Source: Acidiferrobacterales bacterium
Lineage (GTDB): Bacteria; Pseudomonadota; Gammaproteobacteria; Acidiferrobacterales; SPGG2
Assembly (NCBI GenBank): GCA_964194625.1
Contig: CAXMNC010000230.1
Location: forward strand, 3,142-67,141
DNA: 64,000 nt
Reading direction: 5' to 3'
Each line of letters opens with the position of its first letter. Positions within the stretch are counted from its first letter, which is position 1. Both the position numbers and the translations under genes were made by a program. Shown here piece after piece: positions 7,006 through 45,037 of this stretch. The notes beneath the pieces were generated by a model, which had not been told where the DNA came from, ran no database searches, and saw only the letters and a list, made by a program, of their open reading frames with translations.

Positions 7006-7446
7006 ATGAACGATGCGGACACCCGATTAGTCATTAAACGTACCTTCCAGGCACCGGTGGACAAGGTATACAAGGCCTGGACGACACCTACCTTGATGCA
7101 AGAATGGTTTGCGCCTGGCGACATGACGGTTCCGAGCTTGGAGGCCGATGTGCGTGAAGGTGGCTCGTATCGCATCACGATGCTAGAGGCGAGCGGCGAG
7201 AAACACACTACTTACGGCACCTACAAGGAGGTCGTCCCGGGAAAGCGTCTCGTTCACACTTGGCAGTGGGAGGGGTCGGAAGAGGAAACACTGGTGACTA
7301 TTGAATTTCAGGCGCGTGGCGAACGCACCACCGAGCTTGTGGTCACAGATGAACGCTTTACGACCACGCAAGCGAAAGAGGCCCACAACAAGGGCTGGAA
7401 CGGCTGCCTACAAAACTTCGAGTCCTGGCTCGAAGGCGGATCTTAG
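7006..7446 (+). CDS. SRPBCC domain protein (AHSA1 / Aha1-like)
   Basis: 146 aa, begins 10 nt after ArsR. This is the usual ArsR-SRPBCC pairing. Contains the FQAPVDKVYKAWTTP ... GWNGCL pattern. Confidence 0.8.
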   Translation: MNDADTRLVIKRTFQAPVDKVYKAWTTPTLMQEWFAPGDMTVPSLEADVREGGSYRITMLEASGEKHTTYGTYKEVVPGKRLVHTWQWEGSEEETLVTIEFQARGERTTELVVTDERFTTTQAKEAHNKGWNGCLQNFESWLEGGS

Positions 7447-7770
7447 ACCCCACGACCTACAGATGTTTTGGTAAATCCCATCGCTGGCGCCCAGCGGCGG
7501 CCGCCGGCACCGGGTACGGGTTGGGACCACGCTAGGCCACGTTCTCAGCTATACTCTTGGCAACGCTCAAGGGTTTTGTTCCATGGACTGGGGGTATGGG
7601 TCGATTCCATAGCGTGTACGTTCAACGGATGATACTGAGCGTCGATCTACGTTACCCAAGGGCATATGTATGGCGCATAGCCCAAGCCTGGCCCTGTCCC
7701 CAAAACCCTCTTTCTGGAATAGCATGCGCTAGACGCGCGCAATCCGCTTGCTCAAGGATGAGGCAAACTC

Positions 7771-9096
7771 ATGAAAAAGAAGATTGATGTCCGCGACTTA
7801 AAGGCGGGGATGTATGTCTACGAGTTGGACCGGCCATGGCGCGATACGCCATTCCCGTTCCAGGGATTTCAGATCGAGAATGACGAAGCCATCAGCCAGC
7901 TTAGACAGCACTGTGAATATGTCTTCATAGATCCCGATCGTAGCCTCGCAACAGTCTCACCGATTCAAGCGTGGCGGGCGCCGCGGCCAGTGCGGGCAGA
8001 AGGGAAAAAAGGGCCCAAAGCCGAGCTCCACGAGGTTGTCGAAAAGACCACTGCCCATCGTCCAAGGCGAGTTTATCAAGATCAGACAACGGTCGAAGAG
8101 GAGGCTCGATTTATCAAAGAAGCCCACGAGCAGGCTAGCAGCCTGGTTTATTCAGTCATGGAGGACGTACAACGCGGTCAGACCTTCGATGTTGGCACCG
8201 CTAAGAAGGTAGTGGGTGACATGACGCAGAGCGTGCTGCGGAATCCGGATGCGTTAATTTGTTTTACCCATTTAAAGAAAAGACATGAATACACGGCCTT
8301 ACATTCGCTACGCGTGTGTATTCTGGCGCTCGCGTTCGGACGCCACCTGGGATTCGATGAAGAGGCATTGAACGTGCTCGGTATCGGCGCGCTACTGCAC
8401 GACGTCGGAAAGATGAAAGTGCCGCTGGAGATATTAAACAAACCCGGCAAGCTCACTGAGCATGAGTCGCGCATTATGAGGAACCACGTGCCATACGGGG
8501 TTGGTGTGCTAGAACGAGCTAAAGGTATCGCCAAAAAAGCCATTGAGGTCGCACGTCTACACCACGAGCGCTGTGACGGGACCGGATATATGGACAAACT
8601 CAAGGGAGACCAGATCAGCGAGTTTGGATTAATAGGTGCGATCGTCGATGTCTACGACGCAATCACTAGCGACCGACCTTATGGTCATGGCATCGCGACC
8701 CTCGATGCGTTGAACAAGATGTACGCCTGGCGACAAACACAGTTTCATCCCCGTCTGGTGGAGCAATTTATTCAGTGCATGGGTATTTTCCCAATCGGCA
8801 GCCTCGTTAGACTAAACAGCCATGACATCGGTGTGGTGAAAACGATGAATCGTGCCCAACGGCTTAAGCCACAGGTGGTGCTCGTCCTCAAACCCGATAA
8901 AACGCACCACCCCTTCAGAAGAACGGTTGACCTCGCCCATGAAACAAACGGTCGAGGCCAGCCCTACGAAATAACAAAGGTTCTCCCCGCTGGCTTATAT
9001 GGGGTCCAGCCGGTGGACTACTTGCCGATTGCGGCCATGGCGCAACCGTCGCCGACGCCCGTCGGGCAGCATGGGGCACGGCAGCGAAGCATCTAG
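7771..9096 (+). CDS. HD-GYP domain phosphodiesterase with DUF3391-like N-terminus
   Basis: N-terminus DLKAGMYVYELDRPW is DUF3391-like. HD-GYP motifs LHDVGK and HHERCDGTGY are present. Confidence 0.9.
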   Translation: MKKKIDVRDLKAGMYVYELDRPWRDTPFPFQGFQIENDEAISQLRQHCEYVFIDPDRSLATVSPIQAWRAPRPVRAEGKKGPKAELHEVVEKTTAHRPRRVYQDQTTVEEEARFIKEAHEQASSLVYSVMEDVQRGQTFDVGTAKKVVGDMTQSVLRNPDALICFTHLKKRHEYTALHSLRVCILALAFGRHLGFDEEALNVLGIGALLHDVGKMKVPLEILNKPGKLTEHESRIMRNHVPYGVGVLERAKGIAKKAIEVARLHHERCDGTGYMDKLKGDQISEFGLIGAIVDVYDAITSDRPYGHGIATLDALNKMYAWRQTQFHPRLVEQFIQCMGIFPIGSLVRLNSHDIGVVKTMNRAQRLKPQVVLVLKPDKTHHPFRRTVDLAHETNGRGQPYEITKVLPAGLYGVQPVDYLPIAAMAQPSPTPVGQHGARQRSI

Positions 9097-9175
9097 GACC
9101 GAAGCCGCTTTAACGCGTTGTCGCTAGGCAACCGCGTGTACGGCGTCATGTCCAGGGGGCATAATTGCAACTTGG

Positions 9176-11530
9176 ATGGAATGCGGTGCAGGACATGATG
9201 CTAGCGCAAGAAAAGCGATGAACGACGAGTCGTCGGGTTGGAGGCAAACTTCTATGGGGGGCGGGTTGCAGTGTCAACCGTTGGTGTCAGCGATTGCGCC
9301 GCATGAGTTAGGGGTTGCAACACTAACACCGGTTGGAGATTTCGAGGCTGGTGCCTACCAAACCTTTACCCTTATATACACCGCGGGTAAGTATGGCATC
9401 GATGACTCGGGGTCACTTCGGGTATGTTTTCGTTTCGCGTCTGACCAAAGCCGCCCCCAATTCGAGGATCCTGCTCGCGTCGGATACACGACGATTAGTG
9501 CTTCCAATGATGCAGTTTTGCAGTATCGCTATGATCCCAAAGGCAATGTGCGGCCTTGGGATCGAACGCTCTATATCAAGGTCGTCCATGGCTTTTTGCG
9601 CGACGGCGATACCATAACGATACGATTCGGTGACACCTCCAAGGGATCGCCGGGCATGCGCCTGCAGACCTTTTGTGAAGACACCTTCCAGTTCCATGTA
9701 CTTGTGGATCCCATCGCCACCTATAGCTATCAACCCTTGCCCGTGCAGTCGTCGATCCGGATCGTGGCGGGTGCGCCCAAATGTTGGGTGGCGGTATTAC
9801 CCACGCTGCGTCGTGTGGGTGACGCCTTTGCACTTAAGCTCAAGGTCGAAGACAAGTGGGGCAATCCTTCAGACAAGGTCGATACCGAGATCTATCTCGC
9901 GTCAAACCTTGCGTTGCAGGGTCTACCGGAACTGGTTCGCTTTAGGCCGGGTGAATTCGCCCATGTTGTCGACGACATCACAAGCCAAGAACCCGGCGAT
10001 CTCGTTATTACCGTCAAGCGTAAAAATGGCGATCTTCTAGCAGAAAGCAACCCGTTGCGACTCGTGGGCGCTGCGGATTTGCTGCCATATTGGGCCGATT
10101 TGCACGGCCAATCAGAAGAGACCATCGGTACCAATAGTGCCCGCCAATATTTCGAATTCGCGCACGATAAAGCCTTCGTAGACGCCACGGGTCACCAAGG
10201 TAACGACTTCCAAATAACGAATGAGTTTTGGGCCGAACTCGACCGGCTTAGCGCCGAGTTTAACGAGCCTGGCCGATTTGTGACCTTGCCCGGCTACGAG
10301 TGGTCCGGCAATACCGGCCTTGGCGGCGATCGTAATGTTTACTTCACCCAAGAAGGACGACAAATCAGGCGCTCTTCGCATGCGTTGGTCCCTGATCGTA
10401 GCGATCTGCACACGGATGCAAATACTGCTGGCGAACTGTTTCAGGCATTCGCACGAACCGACGAAGACGTGGTGTGTTTTGCGCATTGTGGCGGTCGCTA
10501 TGCCGACGTGAAGCTCGCCCACGACGGTCTCTTTGAGCACTCCATGGAAGTGCACTCGTCTTGGGGTACGTTCGAATGGTTGGTGCAGGACGCATTTGAG
10601 ATGGGCTATCGGGTCGGTATTGTCGCCAATTCTGATGGTCACAAGGGTCGGCCCGGCAGTAGCTATCCCGGCGCCTCGCTTTTCGGTGCCATTGGCGGAC
10701 TCACGTGTTTACTCATGCCGGCGTTAACTCGAGATGAATTGGTGCAGTGCCTGCGTCGCCGTCGCCACTATGCAACGACGGGTGGGCGCATGGTCATCGA
10801 TGTCACAGCGGAATTTCCTCAGGGTGGCACGCGCTATCATGACGATCCTGCGCTAGTAGACTCAAAAGGCGAGCCGGCAACTACAGCTATGATGGGCGAC
10901 ATCGTGCAATTGTCGCGCGGCGATGTCACCCTGAAGGTAGACATACTCGCATCGGCACCGATTGAACGCTTGGAAATCTTCAACGGGCTTGAATCGCTCG
11001 AAACGGTGCGAGCTCATACGCCAGCCGAACTGGGCAACCGGATCCGCGTGGTGTGGGAAGGCGCCGAGTACCGTGGTCGTTTCCGGCAGGTGATCTGGGA
11101 CGGGGAGGCGACGGTGTCAGATAATCGTATCCTCGATGCGCGTCCGATTAACTTTCTCAACCGGGAAAAAACCCTCGAAATTGTCGGTGACAACGGGCTC
11201 GCCTGGCGCGCCCTGACCACCGGGAATATCGGCGGCTTTGATGTATGGCTCGATGATCCTTACGGCGGCACGCTTAAGCTCGAAACCCCAGTTATTAAAT
11301 GCGGCATACCGTTAGAGGATATTGGGTTCGATGATGAGGTTATCGATAATTCAGGTGTGTTGCCGCGATTTGTCCGTATTTTTCGTCTACCGACAGACAA
11401 TCCCCATCGTACCCTGCGAATTCAGCGTACCATCAACATAGTGCCCGATCGCGACAATCCGATCTTTATCAAGCTCACACAGGAAGATGGCCATATCGCT
11501 TGGACCAGCCCGATCTACTTTTTTCGCTGA
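9176..11530 (+). CDS. large conserved hypothetical protein, possible metal-dependent hydrolase (PHP/DUF3604-like guess)
   Basis: 784-aa ORF with strong coding appearance. The central block YWADLHGQSEETIG ... GYEWSGN ... NSDGHKG suggests a metallohydrolase core. The family call is uncertain and the start is not resolved. Confidence 0.6.
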   Translation: MECGAGHDASARKAMNDESSGWRQTSMGGGLQCQPLVSAIAPHELGVATLTPVGDFEAGAYQTFTLIYTAGKYGIDDSGSLRVCFRFASDQSRPQFEDPARVGYTTISASNDAVLQYRYDPKGNVRPWDRTLYIKVVHGFLRDGDTITIRFGDTSKGSPGMRLQTFCEDTFQFHVLVDPIATYSYQPLPVQSSIRIVAGAPKCWVAVLPTLRRVGDAFALKLKVEDKWGNPSDKVDTEIYLASNLALQGLPELVRFRPGEFAHVVDDITSQEPGDLVITVKRKNGDLLAESNPLRLVGAADLLPYWADLHGQSEETIGTNSARQYFEFAHDKAFVDATGHQGNDFQITNEFWAELDRLSAEFNEPGRFVTLPGYEWSGNTGLGGDRNVYFTQEGRQIRRSSHALVPDRSDLHTDANTAGELFQAFARTDEDVVCFAHCGGRYADVKLAHDGLFEHSMEVHSSWGTFEWLVQDAFEMGYRVGIVANSDGHKGRPGSSYPGASLFGAIGGLTCLLMPALTRDELVQCLRRRRHYATTGGRMVIDVTAEFPQGGTRYHDDPALVDSKGEPATTAMMGDIVQLSRGDVTLKVDILASAPIERLEIFNGLESLETVRAHTPAELGNRIRVVWEGAEYRGRFRQVIWDGEATVSDNRILDARPINFLNREKTLEIVGDNGLAWRALTTGNIGGFDVWLDDPYGGTLKLETPVIKCGIPLEDIGFDDEVIDNSGVLPRFVRIFRLPTDNPHRTLRIQRTINIVPDRDNPIFIKLTQEDGHIAWTSPIYFFR

Positions 11531-26650: not shown

Positions 26651-27670
26651 TTAGGTGTGCAGTTCGATGATATCACCATCGGCGACGGGATGGTCATGCC
26701 CCACCTGGCGTCCCTCGACCTCGTGGCCTCGCCAAAGCCGAGCGTACTTTAAGGTCTCCCCGAGGTCCCGGTGTACCATCACCGCCACATCGTGCACCGT
26801 CTGTCCGCGGCGAACGGTGAAAGGTCTGTCCTTGTCGGGTGGCCGTCCTGGTGGCTTGGTGTACACGCGCACAATTCCAAGGTTACGGAAAAGCCACGGC
26901 GCTATTTGGTCGAGCCCCTCACCGGTAGTCGCTGAGACCGCGATTGCGGGATACCGCAGATCGGCGAGCTCCTCGAACACCTGAAGCTCTTCCTGCAACG
27001 CTGGAATTAGATCTGCCTTGGTCGCAATCAGTAATACAGGTAGATGGATGGCGAACGGATTGAGCTCCTCCTCATCGCCGTCATCCGACGGTGTTTGGTC
27101 CCACTTTTCAGTCATGGTTACACCTTTTGCCGCCAGAATTTCGTGGACGGCCATCACCTGATCCACGCAGGCGGGATCACCGAGCTCTACCACTAGTAGA
27201 CACACGTCGGCCGGCTGCAGTGTGTTGGCAATCCACGGCACCGGATGCTCGGCGGCAACCGGGGGTAAATCGATAAGCTGGAAGTAGATATCTTCGTAGG
27301 GCAGCATCCCCGGCTGCGGGAACTGTGTAGTGAAGGGGTAGGGACCGGCAGGCGCGTGCGATCCTGTAAGCTTCGCTTGCAGGGTGGACTTACCGGTGTT
27401 GGGCGGACCGATTAGTGCGACCTGGGCGGCACCCTCGGGCCGGATGACGGTTGGCGGTCCGCCGCGGGCGCCGCCTTTCTTCGGTCCCGCTAGTTCTTCC
27501 GTGAGTTGCTTGACGCGAGTCTTGATATCGGCCTGCAGGTGATCAGTACCCTTGTGCTTGGGAATTGTGCGCAACATCTCACGCAGGCATTCTAGGCGTT
27601 CTTTGGAATCGCGCGCCTGTCTGAAGGCCGCCTCAGCCGCTTTGTATTCCGGTGTCGTGTTGGTGGGCAT
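26651..27670 (-). CDS. Obg/DRG-family GTPase with C-terminal TGS domain
   Basis: DRG-like N-terminus (KHKGTDHLQADIKTRVKQL), G1 GPPNTGKST, G4 TKADL, and a C-terminal TGS-like segment (RVYTKPPG ... VHDVAVMVHRDL). Confidence 0.85.
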   Translation of the reverse strand: MPTNTTPEYKAAEAAFRQARDSKERLECLREMLRTIPKHKGTDHLQADIKTRVKQLTEELAGPKKGGARGGPPTVIRPEGAAQVALIGPPNTGKSTLQAKLTGSHAPAGPYPFTTQFPQPGMLPYEDIYFQLIDLPPVAAEHPVPWIANTLQPADVCLLVVELGDPACVDQVMAVHEILAAKGVTMTEKWDQTPSDDGDEEELNPFAIHLPVLLIATKADLIPALQEELQVFEELADLRYPAIAVSATTGEGLDQIAPWLFRNLGIVRVYTKPPGRPPDKDRPFTVRRGQTVHDVAVMVHRDLGETLKYARLWRGHEVEGRQVGHDHPVADGDIIELHT

Positions 27671-27712
27671 GGCGTCTGGTCGAGTGTCTTGATCGTCGCA
27701 ACCACGACCCAA

Positions 27713-28939
27713 TCAAGGCTGAGTCAACTTGATCTCGATCCGGCGGTTACGCTTGTAAGCATCCTCGGAGATCCGGTCATCGAGGGGACGGAACTCCCCA
27801 AATCCGGTGGCGGCCAGTCGCACCGGTGAGATACCCTGCGCGATCAGGTAGTTAACGACCGATAGGGCGCGTGCCGTGGACAACTCCCAGTTGGAAGGAA
27901 ACCTCGCGGTCTGGATCGGGCGGCGGTCGGTGTGACCATCGACGCGCAAGATCCAATCAATGTCCGACGGGATCTTACTGGTGACGGTCTTGAGTGTTTC
28001 TGCCAATCGCGCGAGCTGGTGCCTGCCCGCTGGCATGAGGGTGGCTGAGGCGGTGGGGAACAACAGTTCTGACGGGAAAACGAAGCGATCGCCAACGATA
28101 CGAATGTCTGGATGATCGCCTAGGGCTTCGCGCAATCGGCCAAAGAACTCCGAGCGATATCGATTGAGCTCCTGGACTTTGCGTGCTAGCGCGACATTAA
28201 GGCGCTGTCCGAGTTCAGCGATCTTTACTTTCTGTTCTTCGACTTTGCTTTCCTCAAGGGCGAGGGCGGCCGAGAGCCTGGCGAGCTGCTCACGCAGGGC
28301 GGCAATCTGTTGATTCAACAAGGCCACACGGGCGCGCGACTCTTCCTTCACTTCCGTGAGGTCTGCCTCTAGGGTCTTGCTACGATCGCGCGCGACGACG
28401 ATTTCCTCGTCGCGTTGTTTTACGGTTTCTGCGAGTCCAGCAACCCGAGTCTCCAATTCAGTCCGCCGCTGGCGTAAGGTAGCGATGTTCTCCTGTAGGC
28501 TGGCAATCTCCTGAAGTTGTAGCTCGATCTTTTCCTTGTCGGTGGCGATGATCGTCGAGGCGTCCTCGAGTTTTGCTTCGAGTTGGGAAGCCTCGGCCTC
28601 GGCCACTTCCGCCCTTTGTGTGGTCACAGCAAGTTGGCTCGTCAACGAATCGCGTTCTGCAAGCGTGGCTTTGAGCCGACTCGAAAGCTCCGTGATCCTT
28701 TCACCAAGCTCAGCACTTTTCTCGCGTTCCAGTGACAATGTGTTTGCGAGCTCGTTGACCTGCAGTGATAACTCGTCAAGCGCCCGTTCGCGTCCAATCA
28801 GTCTTTCGTTGAGAAAGAACTGGGCCAGCACGAAGATAAGTACCACAAAGATAAATACCAACAGCACCGATGCAAGCGCATCGACAAAAGCGGGCCAAAC
28901 ATTTACGGTGTAGCGGCTGCGGCGTGTAAGCGCGAACAT
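27713..28939 (-). CDS. MotB-like protein with long coiled coil and OmpA/MotB peptidoglycan-binding domain
   Basis: N-terminal TM WPAFVDALASVLLVFIFVV with the conserved Asp, about 230 aa of heptad repeats, and a C-terminal OmpA-like block RVDGHTDRRPI ... STARALSV ... NRRIEIKL. Confidence 0.85.
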   Translation of the reverse strand: MFALTRRSRYTVNVWPAFVDALASVLLVFIFVVLIFVLAQFFLNERLIGRERALDELSLQVNELANTLSLEREKSAELGERITELSSRLKATLAERDSLTSQLAVTTQRAEVAEAEASQLEAKLEDASTIIATDKEKIELQLQEIASLQENIATLRQRRTELETRVAGLAETVKQRDEEIVVARDRSKTLEADLTEVKEESRARVALLNQQIAALREQLARLSAALALEESKVEEQKVKIAELGQRLNVALARKVQELNRYRSEFFGRLREALGDHPDIRIVGDRFVFPSELLFPTASATLMPAGRHQLARLAETLKTVTSKIPSDIDWILRVDGHTDRRPIQTARFPSNWELSTARALSVVNYLIAQGISPVRLAATGFGEFRPLDDRISEDAYKRNRRIEIKLTQP

Positions 28940-28992
28940 AGCGAGTATCTAAATGCTGCCCCTAATAACTAGTTAGGTAGATTCTCCATGGG

Positions 28993-30150
28993 CTAGTCCC
29001 CGGATTTTTTGCCGCGTGCAGGACGCGGCCTTTCGGCAATGCTACGCGCCAGCAGCCTAAATTCATCACGTAACTCACTCCCGAATTGACTGCGAGCGGC
29101 AGACACTTCTTCCAGTAAACGCTGTAGGCCAACGTCCATATTACGCAGGTGATCGCGCATTTCCTCGTTTCCAGATAGACTGTTGGCGACCTGGTTGGCC
29201 AGCTCCGCCGTTACCGGTTGCAAATCGGTCTGGTTTTTTGTGAGAGTCAAAATCAACTTCTGCTCCGAGCGCAGCTGATCGGTGAGTTCGGCTAGCTGTT
29301 CGCTTAACTTCGCGAGATTATTCTGCACCGCGCGTCGGTCTTCCTCACCACGAGCGACGCTGCGCTGTAACTGATTAAGATTTTCCGCGGTCTGCTCGAG
29401 CAGGGCTTCGATATAGACTGGCAGTGGCTGACCACCTTCTGCCGTTAGCGCGCTACTTGGCAAGTGCGTGAGTTCCGACAGCCACTCTTCCAAATAGTTA
29501 TAAAAGCGGTTCTGTGCGTGTCCTGCTTGCAGGTCAAGAACGCCTAACACTAGCGCGCCGCCCAGGCCAAACAACGACGAGCTGAAGGCGGTACCCATCC
29601 CGGTTAGCGGACCTTGCAGGTCGCGCTTGAGTTCATCGAAAATCGCGCTGGGGTCACCAGTCCCGGCGGAAAGACCACCAATCACGTTACCCACGCCTGC
29701 GACGGTATCCAGCAGTCCCCAGAAAGTGCCGAGCAAACCGAGAAAAATCATTAAGCCGATCATATAGCGGGAAATATCACGGGACTCATCCAGGCGCAGA
29801 CGGATGCCGTCCAGTAATGAACGCATGGCCATGGCGGATATTCGGAATTGTTCCTGATCGCGGCCGCTGAACATCTTTGCCATCGATGCCAGCAGGCGGG
29901 GCGCCTCGTCTGACGGCGGCAGGGCGTCTACGTCCCGTACGTCGTCGATCCAAGCGGTCGCCGGCCCAAGAGTCAAGACCTGCAGAAAGTTCACGCCGAC
30001 ACCGATCACCAGCACCCCGAGTATCATGCCGTTGAAGATCTGGTTGGCGTCAAACGCCGTGCGCAGCGGAGGAAAAAGCAGGGCGCACACTACACCCACT
30101 GCACCGAGAAACAGTACCATCCATACCAACATGCGTTGGGAATCACTCAC
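28993..30150 (-). CDS. MotA/TolQ/ExbB proton-channel family protein with C-terminal coiled-coil tail
   Basis: Four TM helices, channel signature GLMIFLGLLGTFWGLL ... GMGTAFSSSLFGLGGALVLG, then a tail of about 130 aa that is rich in heptads. Confidence 0.8.
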   Translation of the reverse strand: MSDSQRMLVWMVLFLGAVGVVCALLFPPLRTAFDANQIFNGMILGVLVIGVGVNFLQVLTLGPATAWIDDVRDVDALPPSDEAPRLLASMAKMFSGRDQEQFRISAMAMRSLLDGIRLRLDESRDISRYMIGLMIFLGLLGTFWGLLDTVAGVGNVIGGLSAGTGDPSAIFDELKRDLQGPLTGMGTAFSSSLFGLGGALVLGVLDLQAGHAQNRFYNYLEEWLSELTHLPSSALTAEGGQPLPVYIEALLEQTAENLNQLQRSVARGEEDRRAVQNNLAKLSEQLAELTDQLRSEQKLILTLTKNQTDLQPVTAELANQVANSLSGNEEMRDHLRNMDVGLQRLLEEVSAARSQFGSELRDEFRLLARSIAERPRPARGKKSGD

Positions 30151-37283: not shown

Positions 37284-37694
37284 TTGACGATTAAGGAGAT
37301 CGAACGTGCCGGCCAACCAATAATCATTACTCAAGAAGGGGTTTCGGCGGTAAAGGAAGCGATTCGATACCTACGTGCGGCCAGTTCCTTGCCTTTACTT
37401 AAGATCTCGATCGGCATGTCGTTGGCTGCCGAAGACCATGTCAAAGAACTCGGTCCAGCCGGAACATTGGGGCACCGAGGCCTCACCGGCAGTTGCCCCC
37501 CAAATCGCGTAAATCGTTATGGGGCGTGGAAGGAGGCCATAGGAGAGGCCATTTACTATGGTCGAGACGATGCGCGGGACGTAGTCATGGCGCTAATCAT
37601 TGACGACGGTGTGCCTAGTCATGGCCACCGACACCACATCTTCGATCCCGCTTTTCGCATTGTGGGCGTCGCTTGTGGTCCCCACGCTATCTAG
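37284..37694 (+). CDS. CAP/SCP domain protein (YkwD-like), no signal peptide seen
   Basis: LAAEDHVKELGPAGTLGHRG ... GEAIYYG ... GHRHHIF motifs. It has a TTG start and no export signal, so it may be N-terminally truncated. Confidence 0.55.
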   Translation: MTIKEIERAGQPIIITQEGVSAVKEAIRYLRAASSLPLLKISIGMSLAAEDHVKELGPAGTLGHRGLTGSCPPNRVNRYGAWKEAIGEAIYYGRDDARDVVMALIIDDGVPSHGHRHHIFDPAFRIVGVACGPHAI

Positions 37695-37958: not shown

Positions 37959-38768
37959 ATGAAAAACGTCCTCAGGCGGGACGAAACCAGGATGGACCAA
38001 CCCTCCACCGCCGTCGATGATCTGTACAGCGACGATTCGCCACCCACGTTTATTACCCCGCTGCCCGACAAGGCGAAAACGGGAGAAACAGCCGTGCCTA
38101 CGAGCCGGCGGCTATGGGCGCTGTTCGACAGGATGCGTAATCGCGAGCACGACCCTTACCGGCATCTTCTGATGCTGCGATTCGTGCTTCTGAATCTAGC
38201 GGCCTTTGCGCTCTTAGGTGTTGCTTATGTTCATGGTTTTGTCGATATGGTCGTCGCCGCCGATCGAACATACTTGTCTGTGGTCATTGGCCTCGTGTTC
38301 TTGGTCGGCCTTGGACTTTGCGGGCGCAAGGTCTGGCAAACGAGCCGAGAGCTCGATCGGGTGCGGAAACCCGATGCGTTTGCTCGATCTAGCGAGCTAG
38401 AGCGGTTGCGATCACGCGACCCAGAGGGCCGCGGAAATCTCATCAGCGTCTTGCGCTTGACGCTTTCCCACCGCATTTCCATCGTGCGCCACATCGCCAA
38501 CACTCTGGTACTGCTCGGACTTATCGGTACCGTGCTTGGCTTTATCATCGCACTGTCTGGTGTCGATGCAGAGCGTGCCTCAGACATCGATGCGATCACG
38601 CCGATGATCTCTACTTTGATAAGTGGCATGTCGACGGCGCTTTACACAACGTTGGTGGGCGCCATCCTGAACGTATGGCTCATGGCCAACCATCAGATGT
38701 TGACAAGCGGTACGGTTAAACTTATGGCTTTGCTAATGGAGTCGGCGGAGACGCATGCGCGAGATTGA
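37959..38768 (+). CDS. MotA/TolQ/ExbB-like proton-channel family protein
   Basis: TM helices plus the channel signature LVLLGLIGTVLGFIIAL ... ISGMSTALYTTLVGAILNVWL; 269 aa. Confidence 0.75.
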   Translation: MKNVLRRDETRMDQPSTAVDDLYSDDSPPTFITPLPDKAKTGETAVPTSRRLWALFDRMRNREHDPYRHLLMLRFVLLNLAAFALLGVAYVHGFVDMVVAADRTYLSVVIGLVFLVGLGLCGRKVWQTSRELDRVRKPDAFARSSELERLRSRDPEGRGNLISVLRLTLSHRISIVRHIANTLVLLGLIGTVLGFIIALSGVDAERASDIDAITPMISTLISGMSTALYTTLVGAILNVWLMANHQMLTSGTVKLMALLMESAETHARD

Positions 38769-39360
38769 TTTCTTTGATGACGAGAGCGGCGCTACCGTAT
38801 TTCGCGATGTCATCATGTTAGCCCTGGCTGGATTTGTCATGCTGGTGCTGCTGTTACTACCTCATCTAAATCCTCGAGCGACCCCACAAGATCCGACCCC
38901 TAGGCCGGGCAACGTAATGGTCGAACTTCGTTGGCCGGATGAGTTGAATGTCGACGTTGACCTCTGGGTGCAAGCGCCGGGAGATGTACCGGTCGGTTAT
39001 TCAAATCAAGGTAGCGCTATCTTTAATCTGTTGCGCGATGACCTCGGTCACATTAACGACGCCACCGACCTCAATTATGAATTTTCGTACAGTCGTGGTG
39101 TGCCGGCGGGAGAATATACGGTCAATCTTCATCTCTACAGAAATCTGGCGAACGTCTACCCAATTCCGGCGGTCGTTGCGGTAAGCGTGAAGAATTCACC
39201 GAATTTGCCCGCTCAACAAATTCTGTCGACCAAACTTAATCTGTCGCATGAAGATGAAGAACTCACGGCCTTTCGATTCAAGCTTGATGAAGAAGGGCGT
39301 CTACTAAGTGGTAGTGTCCACAATCTGCCGCGGCCGTTGCGGGCATCAACTAGGCGATGA
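38755..39360 (+). CDS. single-pass membrane protein, ExbD/TolR/MotB-like TM with Asp plus periplasmic beta-rich domain
   Basis: Overlaps the upstream gene by 14 nt. TM is FRDVIMLALAGFVMLVLLLL with Asp at the cytoplasmic edge. The periplasmic block VELRWPDELNVDVDLWVQAPGD...GEYTVNLHLY resembles the DUF2135-type sandwich from memory. Confidence 0.6.
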   Translation: MREIDFFDDESGATVFRDVIMLALAGFVMLVLLLLPHLNPRATPQDPTPRPGNVMVELRWPDELNVDVDLWVQAPGDVPVGYSNQGSAIFNLLRDDLGHINDATDLNYEFSYSRGVPAGEYTVNLHLYRNLANVYPIPAVVAVSVKNSPNLPAQQILSTKLNLSHEDEELTAFRFKLDEEGRLLSGSVHNLPRPLRASTRR

Positions 39361-39860
39361 ATTACGTCTTCTATCTATTCGTCATGTCGGTGGGACTGAT
39401 AACAGCGCTTGCTGCGATCAGCATCTGGTCCCCACGCGCACTCTGGGTGAAAGTCGGCGCACTGACGCTAGTTACGCTGTTTTTGCCTGCTGCTTATGTC
39501 AGTTTGGTAGAGTTGTTGAGTCGTCCTAAGCCGATCGCCCTTGAATGGGGGAATCGTGATCTATCGAAGGCGGTGGTGTTACATGCTGACTGGCGGGAAG
39601 GTGAGAGCATCTATCTGTGGCTCAGGGTTCCCGGGATTGATGATCCACGAGCGTACGTGCTTCCTTGGAATCAAAAACAGGCTGAACAGCTCTTTGCCGC
39701 TCAGCGGGAGGCGGAATCACGACGGACCGAAGTGCATGTCGAACGTCCCTTTGGTCGTGACCAGGAGGAGAGTCAGCAACTAGTGTTTTATGCTGTGCCG
39801 CAGCCAGCTCCACCACCCAAAGTGACACCGGCCAACAACACGTTTTTCTATCAGCCGTGA
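39357..39860 (+). CDS. two-TM membrane protein, hypothetical
   Basis: ATGA start/stop overlap with the upstream gene. Two N-terminal helices precede a soluble domain of about 100 aa. No family recognised. Confidence 0.55.
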   Translation: MNYVFYLFVMSVGLITALAAISIWSPRALWVKVGALTLVTLFLPAAYVSLVELLSRPKPIALEWGNRDLSKAVVLHADWREGESIYLWLRVPGIDDPRAYVLPWNQKQAEQLFAAQREAESRRTEVHVERPFGRDQEESQQLVFYAVPQPAPPPKVTPANNTFFYQP

Positions 39861-39897: not shown

Positions 39898-40068
39898 TTA
39901 GATGTGCGTCAGCGACTTGACCGGGTTTTCTGGAACCAAAGATTTACCGGAGGCATCTCGGTAGTGCGTACTAAAGAAGTTGTACATAGCCCGCAGGCAA
40001 CGCATGGCGCGGTTAGCGTAGGCATTACCGTGTTCCTGCCAGAGTTCCTGGTGGCGTTCAGTGATCAT
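39898..40068 (-). pseudogene. tyrosine integrase remnant (N-terminal SAM-like region only)
   Basis: 56-codon minus-strand ORF: MITERHQELWQEHGNAYANRAMRCLRAMYNFFSTHYRDASGKSLVPENPVKSLTHI. This matches the ANxAMRxLRAxFNFA...ENPVKxL block of integrase core-binding domains. There are stops on both sides and no catalytic domain. The plus-strand ORF 39904-40098 is its antisense shadow. Confidence 0.6.
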
Positions 40069-40268
40069 ACAATTCGCAGATTACTTCTAGGCTGGTAGCG
40101 TAACGACATGCAGTGGTGGATGATCCTTGCGATCGAATTCCCGCTGTTGGGTATAGGTGGGATTCTTACCGATATTCGACTCTCCAAGAGAAGCGGGAGG
40201 ATGTTGACCGAGTGCCCCCATGATACCGAAGTACAGGCTACGAAAAACCTAAGTGGCAAAGGCTGAGG

Positions 40269-40886
40269 ATGCGCAAGCCTGGATCCATGCGCGGGCTAGA
40301 AGAACTCGGTCGTGTGCGACTTAGCCCGAATTTTTACATGCGTGATTTTCTCTATTCTGAAATCGCCAACTTCTACACTATCCCCAACATTCCAGAGTAT
40401 CCCAATCTCGCCATTGCTACGGGAACACAACTGTGTGAGGAGTTACTTGAGCCATTACAGGCAACCTTTGGGCGTATTGCGGTTCGTTCTGGCTATCGTG
40501 CGGCGGCGGTGACTGAGTTCGGCAACAAGCGCGGGCAGGGCGCGAGCATTGAGGCCAATGCCGCTTATCACGTTTGGGATCTACGAGATTCCGAGGGGTG
40601 CCTAGGCGCAGCCGCCTGTATCGTGATTCCTTGGTTCGCAGATCGCTACGAGCAGGGGGCTGACTGGCGTGAACTCGCCTGGTGGATTCATGACCACATA
40701 CCTTATTCGCACCTTCAATTCTTCCCGAAGCTTTGTGCCTTCAACATTCAATGGTATGAGCGGCCGACGCGCAGAATCGACAGTTTCATTGCACCCAAAG
40801 GTTGTCTCACTAAGCCCGGTATGCCAAATCATGAAGGCAGTCATTCAAAGTGGTACCGGGATTTCCCAACCCTCTCTAAGACCTAG
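40269..40886 (+). CDS. hypothetical protein, peptidase M15A-like (weak)
   Basis: LSPNFYMRDFLYSE ... IAVRSGYR ... AYHVWD loosely resembles the LAS/M15 zinc-peptidase layout. This is a low-confidence family call. Confidence 0.45.
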   Translation: MRKPGSMRGLEELGRVRLSPNFYMRDFLYSEIANFYTIPNIPEYPNLAIATGTQLCEELLEPLQATFGRIAVRSGYRAAAVTEFGNKRGQGASIEANAAYHVWDLRDSEGCLGAAACIVIPWFADRYEQGADWRELAWWIHDHIPYSHLQFFPKLCAFNIQWYERPTRRIDSFIAPKGCLTKPGMPNHEGSHSKWYRDFPTLSKT

Positions 40887-41024
40887 ACGCTCACATTCCG
40901 AATTCACCGTGTTAATCTGGCAGCGCGGATGAACCATGGGTCTTGCCGGCATCTTCATTCGGTTTCGAAACTATCAAGACCATGTCGGTCTCTCATATCT
41001 ACTTCTTGTCTGACTGATTTCCTA

Positions 41025-41747
41025 TTAAGCGAAGAATGCCCTTTCTAGCGCCTCTACATCGACACCGAGAAGTTTTTTGATGGCTCGATGGCCTATGTCG
41101 GTTACATGGATATTTCGACTATTCGATTGTTTGCGAAGCCAGCGCTGTTTTACGAACGCGTCTGTCATGGCCTGACCAAGGCTGCCGCCAAGATGTGGTT
41201 TGCGTTCGCTCCAGTCGAGGCACTGGCGCGCGAGCAAGCGTCGACGTTTACGAAACTTGACAAGGTCAATACCGAGATCTTTAAAGAACTGCTCACCGGT
41301 AGCAGGGACTAGAAAATCATCTTCACCACTCAGTTTGATTACATCATGTGCTTGTAGTGCTTCTGTAACCGCGATACCCAAGCAACCTGCCAGGTGGTTG
41401 TAGCAAGTTCGAGCGAAACAGACATCGTTTCTTCGTTTGGCGGCGGGCTTGGCGTTTGTATTGGGTGCAATACGGGCGAGTGCTTCGATTGCATCAGCGA
41501 TATCGGGCGATGCGAGACGATAAAAACGATGTCGGCCCTGCGGCAGGATATTGAGCAAGCCGGCACCGTCGAGTTTGCTCAGGTGAAAACTAGCCGTTTG
41601 TGGCGTCACGCCTGCCCCATGAGCGAGCTCTCTTGCGGTGAGCGCGCGGCCGTCTAGGAGGGCGGCCACGATCGCGGCCCGTGTCTCATCTCCGAGCAAG
41701 GTGCCAATAATGGCGATATCTTGGGCTGCTGGCATGAACATCAGCAT
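41025..41747 (-). CDS. ArsR-family winged-HTH transcriptional regulator with C-terminal extension
   Basis: LGDETRAAIVAALLDGRALTARELAHGAGVTPQTASFHLSKLDGAGLL; 240 aa. Confidence 0.8.
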   Translation of the reverse strand: MLMFMPAAQDIAIIGTLLGDETRAAIVAALLDGRALTARELAHGAGVTPQTASFHLSKLDGAGLLNILPQGRHRFYRLASPDIADAIEALARIAPNTNAKPAAKRRNDVCFARTCYNHLAGCLGIAVTEALQAHDVIKLSGEDDFLVPATGEQFFKDLGIDLVKFRKRRRLLARQCLDWSERKPHLGGSLGQAMTDAFVKQRWLRKQSNSRNIHVTDIGHRAIKKLLGVDVEALERAFFA

Positions 41748-41779
41748 CGATCTGTTATCATAGTTCGATGCTAATCGAT

Positions 41780-43033
41780 CTATTTCTGTATATCAACTGG
41801 TGGACATGTCAGGGGTGCACGTAGGCTTCGGGCGAGGTTGCCACGTCGAGTAAGCGCGACATGCTTCAAGCCCAGCCAAGCGGTGAGCCTATATAGTTCT
41901 TGTGCGAGCGCCTGCGCTACGCGTGCCCCGTCAATCCCAACTTCGCCGTGGGCGGCTAGAACGCATAGCGTTCGGCTTAATCGATCGACCTTAAGATCCA
42001 CACGTGCTACGAGCCGTTCATTAAGGAGAAACGGCAAGACATAATAGCCGTGTTTGCGTTTTTCGGCCGGCGTATAGATTTCAAGCCGATAGCGAAAGTC
42101 GAATAGCCTTTCTGTGCGTGAACGTTCCCATATTAATGGGTCAAAGGGAGACAGGAGTGCCGACCCAAACACCCGACGCGGTATCCGGGCACGCGGATCA
42201 AGGTACGTGCACCCACGCCAACCATCCACTTGTACCGATAAGAGATCTCCATTTTCCACAAGCTCAGCAATGCGCTGTTTGGTGTTGATAGTGGGCAGGC
42301 GAAAGTAGTCACGTAGATCCGCCTCAGTTGCAACGCCGAGGGCGCGGGCGGCGAGTCGCACCAATTTGCGTTGAGCTTCCGATTCAGTCGGTGTGGGTAA
42401 TGCAATGATGTCGGCCGGTAACACCCGTTCAGTCAGGTCGTAAACTCGCTCGAAACGGCGACGGGTATGAGCGGTGATCTGGCCAGACCAAAACAAGTAC
42501 TCGAGTGCAGTCTTGCCATCGCCCCACCTCCACGAACCACCTAGTCGGCCTCGATTGCTGAGTTCCCGGGCACTCAATGGGCCCCGTTCTCGAATTTCAT
42601 CCAAAACCGAATCGACATAACGACGCTGACCACGCACCGCCCTCACCACATGGGCATAGACACCTTTGAGTTGTTTAGCTTGCGCCATCCGCCAACGCAA
42701 CAGCGGATGTAGCGCAAGCGGTAGCAAAGAGGCCTCGTGGCCCCAGTACTCGAAAAGCTCACGCCGATGCGGATCGAACGCCTTGGTATCGAATGTCGCG
42801 ATATTGTAAGCACCCACGCGTGAGAAAGCGGGCAGGTAGTGCGACCGCACCAGCACGTTAATGGAGTCGATCTGGAGTAGGCCCATTTGCTCAATCGCTT
42901 TTCGAACTCGCGGCCAGGTGGCTCGAGTCTGCGAGCGAGGCTTGCCGAAGCCCTGTGCGGCGAGGGTGATGCGGCGCGCTTCAGCCAAACTGATGTGATT
43001 TTCCGCCAACTCTCCTTCCTCGAATTGACCCAC
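41780..43033 (-). CDS. winged-helix DNA glycosylase, YcaQ/AlkZ-like family
   Basis: ISLAEARRITLAAQGF N-terminus, LLQIDSINV (the Q-phi-D motif recalled for the YcaQ branch), and EYWGHEASLLP; 417 aa. Confidence 0.75.
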   Translation of the reverse strand: MGQFEEGELAENHISLAEARRITLAAQGFGKPRSQTRATWPRVRKAIEQMGLLQIDSINVLVRSHYLPAFSRVGAYNIATFDTKAFDPHRRELFEYWGHEASLLPLALHPLLRWRMAQAKQLKGVYAHVVRAVRGQRRYVDSVLDEIRERGPLSARELSNRGRLGGSWRWGDGKTALEYLFWSGQITAHTRRRFERVYDLTERVLPADIIALPTPTESEAQRKLVRLAARALGVATEADLRDYFRLPTINTKQRIAELVENGDLLSVQVDGWRGCTYLDPRARIPRRVFGSALLSPFDPLIWERSRTERLFDFRYRLEIYTPAEKRKHGYYVLPFLLNERLVARVDLKVDRLSRTLCVLAAHGEVGIDGARVAQALAQELYRLTAWLGLKHVALTRRGNLARSLRAPLTCPPVDIQK

Positions 43034-43707: not shown

Positions 43708-44652
43708 TCAAACACTACCAGAGCTTACTTTGAGTGACTGAACCCTAAGTTCGGTGTTGATTAGCCACTTGCGTATACGATTGGAGTCACCAAACTTACT
43801 TAGTTTGCCCCACGAGTTGAGGAGGATGATAATGAGGGGTCGGTTAGCGATTGTGGTACGCATGAGCAAGCAGTTACCGGCGGCAGCGGTGTATCCAGTC
43901 TTACTCAGCTCGATATCCCATGAACCTCGATGCACGAGACGGTTTGTGTTTCGAAAGCCGATCAGCTTGTTATCCTCCCAATTGGTAGCGATTACTTTTC
44001 GGCTGGTCGTTAAAACTCGAAGCAACCAGTAATCACGGGCAGCGGCAATAAGTTTCGCGAGATCGCTTGCGGTGGACACGTTTCCACTGTGCAAGCCAGT
44101 GGGGTCAGCGAACCGGCTGTTAGTCATCCCTAGTTCTCGAGCTTTCGCGTTCATCGCCGCAATCATTTCATCGCGACCACCTGGGTAGGTGCGGGCGAGG
44201 GCTGCCGCAGCCCGATTGTCGGAAGCAGCCAGGGCCACATGTAGCATGTCGAGACGAGTCAGAACAGTTCCGTAGTGTAGGCGTGATTTGGTGCCTCTTA
44301 GGCGATCTCGATCCGCCTGTGTAATCCCTATCTTTTCAGCCAAGGACAGATCGGCGTCGAGTATCACAAGGGCGGTCATAAGTTTAGTGAGCGAGGCGAT
44401 AGGTCGGGGTTCGTCCGCATTGCGTTTATGAAGCGTTACGCCCTCACGCTCATCTATAATCAACGCCACCGAAGAACGTAGAAAGAGCTTGTTTGGATTG
44501 CCATGGCGTGCGATTAGCGCCGCGGGCACTATCTGCGTGGGTTGTTGGACTGGGCTGGCGGTGGGTTTTTGTGCGAAGGCCGGTATCTGAGTAAGCGTGA
44601 TGGCGATGACAACAACATTTGTGATTTCCTTGACCGCAACTGGCATGCCCAT
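43708..44652 (-). CDS. pbpG: D-alanyl-D-alanine endopeptidase (PBP7/PbpG-like, peptidase S11)
   Basis: AAGGAG sits 6 nt before ATG 44652. Signal peptide present. Motifs SxxK (ASLTK), SxN (SDN) and KTG (SKTGYT). Confidence 0.88.
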   Translation of the reverse strand: MGMPVAVKEITNVVVIAITLTQIPAFAQKPTASPVQQPTQIVPAALIARHGNPNKLFLRSSVALIIDEREGVTLHKRNADEPRPIASLTKLMTALVILDADLSLAEKIGITQADRDRLRGTKSRLHYGTVLTRLDMLHVALAASDNRAAAALARTYPGGRDEMIAAMNAKARELGMTNSRFADPTGLHSGNVSTASDLAKLIAAARDYWLLRVLTTSRKVIATNWEDNKLIGFRNTNRLVHRGSWDIELSKTGYTAAAGNCLLMRTTIANRPLIIILLNSWGKLSKFGDSNRIRKWLINTELRVQSLKVSSGSV

Positions 44653-45037
44653 GGATTGCTCCTTGTGGCGAATAGTAATAGCAGTGATCTGAATTATCAA
44701 AGTGGCTCGTTCACTTGAAGGCGGTCTGCTCGTAGGCCGGTATCGCTCCAGCTAGACGTACAAAGGCGACATAGGACGGGGTGATCCCTGACCTTGGTGC
44801 CGTGGGCTTCAGAGCGCCTACCCTATGGCAGCCAGGCTCGTCCCACCGATCATTAATCCTGGTACTGGCTTGGGCATGTCCAAGCTGCCCCGAAAGGGCT
44901 TAGGACGTAACCGTATGATTCTCAGTGTATTTCCCACTGTGTGCGAAAGCGGCCGCAGTTGTCGATCAAGTTCTTTCCCCGGTCGGCGATGGGACGTCTA
45001 TATTTATACGTATCAATAACGTTAGAGAAACGGAGCG

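Follow-up and report, generated by a model that had tools for sequence, protein, structure and literature searches.

What does a channel gene of the MotA/ExbB type do when no flagellar, Ton, or Tol partner is encoded beside it? This question is raised by a three-gene locus of an Acidiferrobacterales bacterium, which lies in the 64,000-nucleotide stretch of contig CAXMNC010000230.1 (GenBank assembly GCA_964194625.1) that we have analyzed and that is called the window throughout. The three genes, named g1, g2, and g3 in 5' to 3' order and together referred to as the trio, cover positions 37959-39860 of the window, and the loci with which they are compared carry L-numbers. An earlier note, made from the sequence alone, had singled out the trio as a candidate for an undescribed system driven by the proton motive force. 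We find that the trio is conserved as a unit in bacteria and is also carried by phages, and we consider it fairly probable that it encodes a small motor of the inner membrane that is complete in itself, belongs to the MotA/ExbB (5:2) superfamily, and has periplasmic output.

The Trio Is Kept as a Unit in Distant Bacteria

The three open reading frames (ORFs) listed in the earlier note are all present on the plus strand, as are the 14-nt overlap between g1 and g2 and the 4-nt overlap (ATGA) between g2 and g3. They encode proteins of 269, 201, and 167 aa, in which hydropathy analysis detects four, one, and two helices, respectively. Judging by sequence conservation, these are real genes and not chance ORFs, because g2 has 4800 relatives at an expectation value (E) ≤1e-3 in a word-indexed search and 1473 clusters at 50% identity in an exhaustive one, nearly all of them 185-215 aa long. 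The base composition of the window is unremarkable, and neither tRNA genes nor Rfam matches were found in its 64 kb.

In a scan of one genome per species, a relative of g2 is encoded in 588 genomes. We analyzed the loci of the best 80 of these 588 carriers, which are Gamma-, Alpha-, and Betaproteobacteria, Nitrospira, and Phycisphaeraceae bins. The order g1-g2-g3 and a common strand are seen in 77 of the 80 loci, and the remaining three contigs end before g3, so that the synteny comparison proposed in the earlier note finds the trio kept as a unit in 77 of 77 testable loci. The tight packing of the genes recurs as well, with g1 and g2 overlapping in 77 of the 80 loci (by 14 nt in 49 and by 8 nt in 28) and g2 and g3 sharing a 4-nt overlap in 60 of 77.

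Clustering of all flanking ORFs across the 80 loci revealed no fourth conserved gene. The extra clusters that recur are opposite-strand shadow ORFs or neighbors confined to a single family, and an ABC-F ATPase and a malate synthase G-like gene (the latter judged by eye) are specific to Granulosicoccaceae. A CAP-domain gene upstream of the trio at 37284-37694, considered as a fourth member, was rejected since it accompanies the trio in L008 only. Sampled flanks are ordinary, encoding a response regulator, a cyclase, an enoyl-CoA hydratase, a Kef-type antiporter, and an aminotransferase. No TonB, TolA, OmpA, flagellar, or defense gene is conserved beside the trio in these loci, which agrees with the earlier note's view of a module without a Ton, Tol, or flagellar partner. 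Neither of the outcomes that the note regarded as fatal to its proposal, a trio not conserved elsewhere or an ordinary ExbD/TolR with TonB or TolA nearby, was found. The defense-island context about which it had asked was not seen either; most bacterial copies lie among housekeeping genes.

The only plasmids carrying g2 matches are Azospirillum chromids, and the one chromid locus that we checked is a full long-form trio. In Azospirillum brasilense/argentinense, the chromids (NZ_CP059450.1 and six others, L089) have two g2 matches each.

g1 Is a Distant Member of the MotA/ExbB Superfamily

The g1 protein matches the Pfam family MotA_ExbB (PF01618) over residues 168-256 with an E of 8e-9 and 35.7 bits, above the curated cutoff of 22.9, which bears out its initial description as MotA/TolQ/ExbB-like. 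Among its relatives, the Pelagibius copy scores 37.7 bits against the same family and a 147-aa phage copy (L122) 30.3 bits; p038 of phage 16-3 reaches only 12.4 bits, as against an E of 2e-9 with a hidden Markov model (HMM) of the g1 family. When a profile of 26 g1 homologs was compared with the PDB, it aligned transmembrane segments (TM) 3 and 4 with MotA (8gqy, E 0.009), the TM3 motif of g1 being aligned with the GTxxG of MotA.

The four helices of g1 span approximately residues 72-92, 103-123, 178-200, and 218-243. They are preceded by an N-terminal tail of ~70 aa, and TM2 and TM3 are separated by a basic 54-aa loop whose charges (9.4 Lys/Arg vs. 4.5 Asp/Glu) place it inside, with two short acidic loops outside. 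Both termini are predicted to be cytoplasmic, and the loop charges thus predict the four-helix topology of MotA. In 120 genome and viral homologs, G187, G190, G194, A227, T231, and G234 are almost invariant, position 191 is Thr or, in 10 viral copies, Asn, and position 230 is Thr or Ser. We take the threonines in TM3 and TM4 to correspond to the threonines of the ion path in TolQ (T145/T178) and ExbB (T148/T181). On this evidence, which is drawn from sequence, g1 truly belongs to the MotA/ExbB superfamily, though as a distant member.

g2 Combines an Asp-Bearing Helix with a β-Sandwich

The g2 protein consists of an acidic N-terminal tail, a helix (residues ~10-38) bearing Asp18 (FRDVIMLALAGF), a linker, and a β-sandwich (residues 53-196). 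An AlphaFold2 model with a predicted local distance difference test score (pLDDT) of 70.8 shows the helix at 10-38 and about nine strands in the sandwich at 53-196. Asp18 is found in 80 of 80 genome copies, 43 of 44 viral copies, and 127 of 129 aligned representatives, that is, in 250 of 253 sequences together. We presume that it corresponds to D32 of MotB, D25 of ExbD, and D23 of TolR. As expected for a B subunit, g2 has a single N-terminal Asp helix and is encoded directly after the A subunit; hydropathy and Asp18 together confirm the single-pass, Asp-bearing protein that had been described.

The rest of g2 is unusual. No match to ExbD/TolR (PF02472) was obtained for g2 at E ≤ 1, nor for 44 distant relatives (35-50% identity) at E ≤ 0.1, and g2 has no OmpA-like (PF00691) match. 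These Pfam negatives, together with the modeled sandwich, agree with the earlier observation that a β-rich domain stands in place of those two. More generally, g2 has no family in Pfam, NCBIfam, PADLOC, or PHROG and no sequence match in the PDB. The resemblance to DUF2135 that the earlier note had sensed has weak backing in that 2 of the 44 distant relatives match this family (PF09906, best E 1.5e-4), but the g2 of the window does not. When the model was compared with PDB folds, the top match (2lge, E 7e-3) was a sandwich with bound Ca, and MmpS5 and an Ig-like domain from PAD4 came next; all three are generic, and BFVD yielded generic sandwiches or nothing. A profile of g2 relatives aligns the DVDLWV region with the jelly roll at the C terminus of Tk-SP subtilisin (E 0.95).

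Across 274 sequences, phage copies included, W60, D67, D69, W71, R94, D95, D96, G98, D102, and E109 are near-universal. This conservation suggests that the acidic cluster of the sandwich is a candidate metal-binding site, and the sandwich would probably bind Ca. Sandwiches of the DUF2135 and pre-peptidase C-terminal types likewise combine a DxDLxV-type motif with an acidic cluster; unlike g2, they are not borne on an Asp-containing helix beside a MotA-like gene. A search for informative g2 fusions was unproductive: P0248 seems to be a read-through caused by a frameshift, and the other longer relatives have tails or inserts only.

g3 Is a Two-Helix Hairpin Protein

The g3 model (AlphaFold2, pLDDT 78.3) displays a helical hairpin (residues 3-24 and 29-55) followed by three strands, a helix, and two short strands, which form a small β/α domain at ~56-130, and the protein ends in a Pro-rich tail (PQPAPPPK). 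In the alignment, the hairpin is followed by an LSRPKP motif and, at the end, by the Pro-rich tail; I85, P97, and P103 are invariant, also in phage copies. In bacterial and viral copies alike, the loop between the helices contains two to three Lys/Arg and no Asp/Glu, so that by the positive-inside rule this loop is probably cytoplasmic and the C-terminal domain periplasmic. No match to g3 was found in Pfam, NCBIfam, PADLOC, PHROGs, or PDB sequences. The third gene is thus what the earlier note had made of it, an ATGA-coupled gene for a two-TM protein of no known family.

Phages and Prophages Carry the Trio

When g2 was compared with isolated phage genomes by tblastn, 29 records were matched, all of them from phages of Rhizobium or Sinorhizobium that fall into at least four types, including temperate phage 16-3 and the T4-like P10VF group. 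Family HMMs identify the trio of 16-3 as p038 (138 aa, g1-like, 2e-9), p040 (g2-like, 2e-53), and p042 (g3-like, 5e-12), and all three genes are also present in RHph_X2_25. In P10VF (consecutive genes 191-193) and RHph_N3_13 (genes 063-065), gene sizes match those of the trio, with family-HMM matches to g1 and g2 and none to g3. In the isolated phages, all these genes are annotated as hypothetical and lie among early or replication genes.

A scan of IMG/VR with alignment A1 added 43 viral contigs, some of them longer than 100 kb. HMMs and BLAST clustering detect g1 in 42, g2 in 44, and g3 in 43 of 45 viral loci (two isolated phages included), the trio being complete in ~40, and no further gene is conserved near it across these loci. 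Neighbors recognized by eye on the viral contigs encode a terminase, a portal, a tail fiber, a clamp loader, and ClpP. Viral g1 proteins are short (~140-155 aa), with four helices and short loops, and they lack both the N-terminal tail and the long loop.

The trio also occurs in cultured Pelagibius sp. Alg239-R121, in Denitrobaculum tricleocarpae R148, and in three related genomes. In these five loci, it is directly beside genes for a portal (Head-tail_con 4e-131, phrog_332) and a prohead protease-like protein and is therefore inside a prophage. Through phage and prophage carriage, the trio family is linked to mobile elements at this larger scale.

In one group of AT-rich viral contigs (L108-L113 and L131), a 160-aa protein, signal peptide-like by eye, is encoded directly upstream of g1 in seven loci, and six of the seven also have a conserved acidic protein of 141 aa after g3. 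Neither of these flanking proteins has a Pfam match.

A Proposed Motor with Periplasmic Output and Its Alternatives

How might the three proteins work together? In the motor that we favor, g1 would form a pentameric ring with almost no cytoplasmic mass around a central g2 dimer, whose helix Asp would take up and release protons. At the g1-g2 interface, the passage of protons would power movement, presumably rotation, and this would be delivered to the periplasm. The g2 sandwich, predicted to be periplasmic by analogy with ExbD, TolR, and MotB, would stand in for the periplasmic domains of ExbD/TolR or MotB, and g3, which occupies the gene position of TolA/TonB, would be a likely load, transducer, or regulator. 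The direction of the output follows from the phage copies: since phage g1 lacks the N-terminal tail and the long loop, the output would not be cytoplasmic, and since it has essentially no cytoplasmic mass while the domains of g2 and g3 are predicted to be periplasmic, work would be delivered to the periplasm. The trio is common to bacterial chromosomes and tailed phages, and that lytic and temperate phages alike carry it suggests a role that most likely concerns the cell envelope and is of use to an infection, the leading candidates being exclusion of other phages and envelope maintenance. Several observations weigh against this motor. The structure models are AlphaFold2 monomers of g2 and g3, and the 5:2 stoichiometry is one that we infer. 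The likeness of g2 to B subunits is confined to a short stretch of helix, where a profile of g2 relatives aligns with ZorB (8qyd) at an E of 0.26 and 1 of the 44 distant relatives matches MotB_plug (PF13677, E 0.009). Moreover, the most conserved loop of g2 (residues 86-104) is modeled at low confidence, and the g3 model has no fold match in the PDB.

The gene order is that of tolQ-tolR-tolA, and g3 combines a membrane anchor with a Pro-rich segment and a domain predicted to be periplasmic, which would fit a divergent Ton/Tol energizer in which g1 and g2 replace ExbBD/TolQR and g3 reaches an outer-membrane partner encoded elsewhere, driving import or stabilizing the outer membrane. That the named carriers are mostly Proteobacteria, plus Nitrospira and Phycisphaeraceae, is also in line with it. 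We nevertheless find this improbable, because g2 has no ExbD/TolR match, g3 has no match to TonB_C or TolA domains in Pfam or NCBIfam, and no outer-membrane partner is conserved nearby in the 80 loci. The ~110 periplasmic residues of g3 are, in addition, probably too few to span the periplasm, and its helices contain no invariant His (alignment A2), unlike TonB and TolA with their motor-binding His (PMC12204202). Hence g3 would be a TonB/TolA analogue at most. An even smaller place is left for a lysis or depolarizing module with g1 as a holin-like pore and g2 and g3 as regulators. It would account for phage carriage, for a weak match of g1 to Phage_holin_7_1 (PF16081, E 4.8e-4), and for cell-wall hydrolase genes a few kilobases away in some viral loci, but the holin match is under the cutoff (20.7 vs. 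27.8 bits), the P10VF and N3_13 modules lie among replication genes and not lysis genes, hundreds of species maintain the trio stably in their chromosomes, and its conserved residues are those of an ion-channel motor. We therefore regard such a module as highly improbable.

An antiphage or superinfection-exclusion function competes with the motor on biological role, not on mechanism, with which it is compatible: a MotAB-like membrane complex would detect incoming phage at the envelope or bar its entry. For phages, this would be a means of excluding competitors, and in bacteria it would persist as a domesticated defense. Its attraction is that the best labeled matches of g1 are ZorA models, that temperate and lytic phages as well as prophages carry the trio, and that in 16-3 it lies a few kilobases from genes annotated as immXl/immXu. 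The ZorA matches, however, cover TM3-TM4 only (PADLOC, E ~1e-6) and in NCBIfam amount to 15-22 bits with cutoffs of 100-700; g1 lacks the long ZorA tail; and most bacterial copies are among housekeeping genes, not in defense islands. Neither ZorC/D/E-type partners nor other PADLOC matches were found beside the trio. This function is, in our judgment, unlikely. Membership in Zorya itself was rejected on the same low scores, with no ZorC/D/E/F/G neighbors and no PADLOC match for g2 or g3.

Relation of the Trio to Known Motors

The proposed motor shares features with several characterized machines. Like TolQ-TolR-TolA and ExbB-ExbD-TonB, the trio comprises three inner-membrane proteins encoded in the order channel, Asp-helix subunit, and anchored periplasmic protein, with conserved Gly/Thr motifs in TM3/TM4 and, as proposed, a periplasmic output. 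Unlike these systems, g1 has four helices, as in MotA, and not three, g2 has a β-sandwich and no ExbD/TolR domain, g3 is a short two-helix hairpin protein devoid of a conserved His and of a TonB_C/TolA domain, and the trio is phage-carried. MotA-MotB and PomA-PomB stators have the same predicted topology in their four-helix A subunit, with MotA (8gqy) the best PDB sequence match of g1, and an Asp in the B-subunit helix; in contrast to them, g1 is without the large cytoplasmic torque domain, g2 is without the MotB plug and the OmpA-like domain, and there is a third subunit and no flagellar context. GldL has two helices and a conserved Glu, and GldM is long and multidomain. We detected no sequence similarity of the trio to GldL/GldM. 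GldL-GldM and PorL-PorM are nonetheless comparable to the trio in having a single-helix subunit with a β-rich periplasmic domain, and in these 5:2 motors it is the β-rich periplasmic domains of that subunit that deliver the work (PMC8986121, PMC9389320). ZorA-ZorB of Zorya (PMC11946911) is, like g1-g2, a nonflagellar MotAB-like pair tied to phage biology; however, g1 has 269 aa (~145 in phages) without a long cytoplasmic tail, and g2 has no peptidoglycan-binding domain.

Motors of the MotA/ExbB type listed in recent surveys, namely flagellar stators, Ton, Tol, the gliding motors AglRQS and GldLM, SiiAB, and Zorya, are all cellular (PMC12204202, PMC9389320), and surveys note many unexplored nonflagellar relatives (PMC12505986, PMC12204202, PMC9389320). 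We found neither the trio nor phage-encoded MotA/ExbB-like motors described in the full-text literature, in which subscription journals are thinly covered, so that their absence is unproven. While the superfamily is known, what is new in the trio is the axle domain, the third subunit, the minimal size, and the viral carriage. A bolder version of the motor, which we put forward tentatively and hold to be somewhat less likely than its alternatives combined, is that the trio is an undescribed minimal class of ion-driven 5:2 motors and the first to be virus-encoded, with ring subunits of ~145 aa, an Asp-helix axle bearing a Ca-binding sandwich, and a hairpin partner. Tailed phages would express it early and have it perform mechanical work on the host's periplasmic side, such as closing the envelope to rival phages or remodeling it, and bacteria of several phyla would have adopted the motor and fitted it with further cytoplasmic segments for control.

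With its new axle domain and new third subunit, a conserved trio of this kind would enlarge the list of motors by one family, and its presence in lytic as well as temperate phages would imply that the host envelope receives a proton-driven machine supplied by the virus itself. The phage copies would be near the smallest possible motor and hence attractive for structural and mechanistic work, for which 16-3 with Sinorhizobium meliloti, the T4-like Rhizobium phages, and Azospirillum brasilense are tractable systems.

The Trio Is an Old Resident of Its Locus

The earlier note had placed the end of the operon at an old recombination junction, 37 nt from a truncated tyrosine-integrase remnant, and had considered the trio as possible mobile-element cargo. 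The distance is correct: 37 nt separate the g3 stop from a 56-aa ORF on the minus strand (Table 1). In L008 (88% nt identity), however, the homolog of this ORF forms the C terminus of a complete protein of 688 aa with an N-terminal FimV_N domain (E 4e-20), which stops at the same place, 34 nt from g3. The last 109 residues of that protein match Phage_int_SAM_1 below threshold (E 1.2e-3, 19.5 bits, cutoff 22.3) and have neither an integrase catalytic domain nor a PDB match. The remnant is thus the end of a FimV_N-type protein, and its stop facing the trio is a natural one.

The break lies on the far side, and the operon does not end at a recombination junction. Compared with L008, the window lacks 2.57 kb (7317-9885 of L008); the breakpoint marks the 5' end of the stub at a distance of 208 nt from the trio, and the deletion removes ~630 N-terminal residues of the FimV_N protein. 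L006, which is 98.7% identical, keeps the long form, and the deletion is therefore polymorphic. In five distant relatives (L009, L010, L020, L026, and L046), the trio lies between homologs of the GTPase/TGS gene (26651-27712) and the S11 DD-carboxypeptidase gene (43708-44700), and homologs of window genes 39898-43033 are absent at these loci. This flank synteny implies that the trio is the older resident in the lineage and that the 39898-43033 block was added beside it; by this comparison of gene content, the FimV-like, 205-aa, ArsR, and AlkZ genes are a later arrival. The trio is in an ancestral position here, and its carriage as cargo of an integrase-marked island was rejected by comparative synteny.

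Table 1. Features of the trio and its 3' flank, in window coordinates
Feature	Position	Strand	Basis
g1, MotA/ExbB-family channel subunit	37959..38768	+	Pfam, PDB profile match, hydropathy, loop charges
g1 TM3 motif GLIGTVLG (G187-G194)	38517..38540	+	Conservation in 120 homologs
g1 TM4 motif GMSTALYTTLVG (G223-G234)	38625..38660	+	Conservation in 120 homologs
g2, B-subunit-like protein, 201 aa	38755..39360	+	AlphaFold2 model, hydropathy
g2 Asp18 codon, presumed proton acceptor in helix	38806..38808	+	Near-universal conservation
g2 sandwich acidic cluster, DVDLWV (67-72) to LLRDDLG (92-98)	38953..39048	+	Conservation in 274 sequences
g3, helix hairpin, small β/α domain, and Pro-rich tail, 167 aa	39357..39860	+	AlphaFold2 model
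56-aa stub, C-terminal end of FimV_N-type protein, outside the module	39898..40068	-	Comparison with L008
Deletion breakpoint relative to L008	40068..40072	.	blastn vs. L008, L007, L006

The L008 protein (7140-9206, minus strand) consists of FimV_N, a helix, a TPR-like segment, and the C-terminal 109 residues, which show weak similarity to three integrase N-terminal SAM-like families and could represent either an ancient in-frame fusion or a native terminus with DNA-binding-like character. Within the added block, the 205-aa ORF (40269-40886, plus strand) is kept in close relatives and has no Pfam or NCBIfam match; its SGYR...H pattern is reminiscent of M15-type cell-wall peptidases.

Other Genes near the Trio

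A gene for a trypsin-like (S1) protease is found 1-5 kb from the trio in several unrelated lineages, in 12 of the 80 genome loci (L016, L019, L024, L029, L031, L033-L035, L038, L041, L044, and L046) and 13 of 44 viral loci (L087, L088, L094, L098-L106, and L128). The phage 16-3 record carries a note on p036 that calls the S1 protease periplasmic, and the window contains no such gene. The protease and the trio may be linked in function, or envelope genes may coincide here by chance.

Finally, the earlier note had titled the trio a second module of its kind. The other MotA-like module implied by that title is at 27713-30150 on the minus strand, where it adjoins the GTPase/TGS gene and consists of a 385-aa membrane/coiled-coil protein (28993-30150) followed by a 408-aa OmpA-domain coiled-coil protein (27713-28939). 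The 385-aa protein has no Pfam MotA match at E < 0.01, and the HMM of the g1 family touches it at an E of 5.8e-4.

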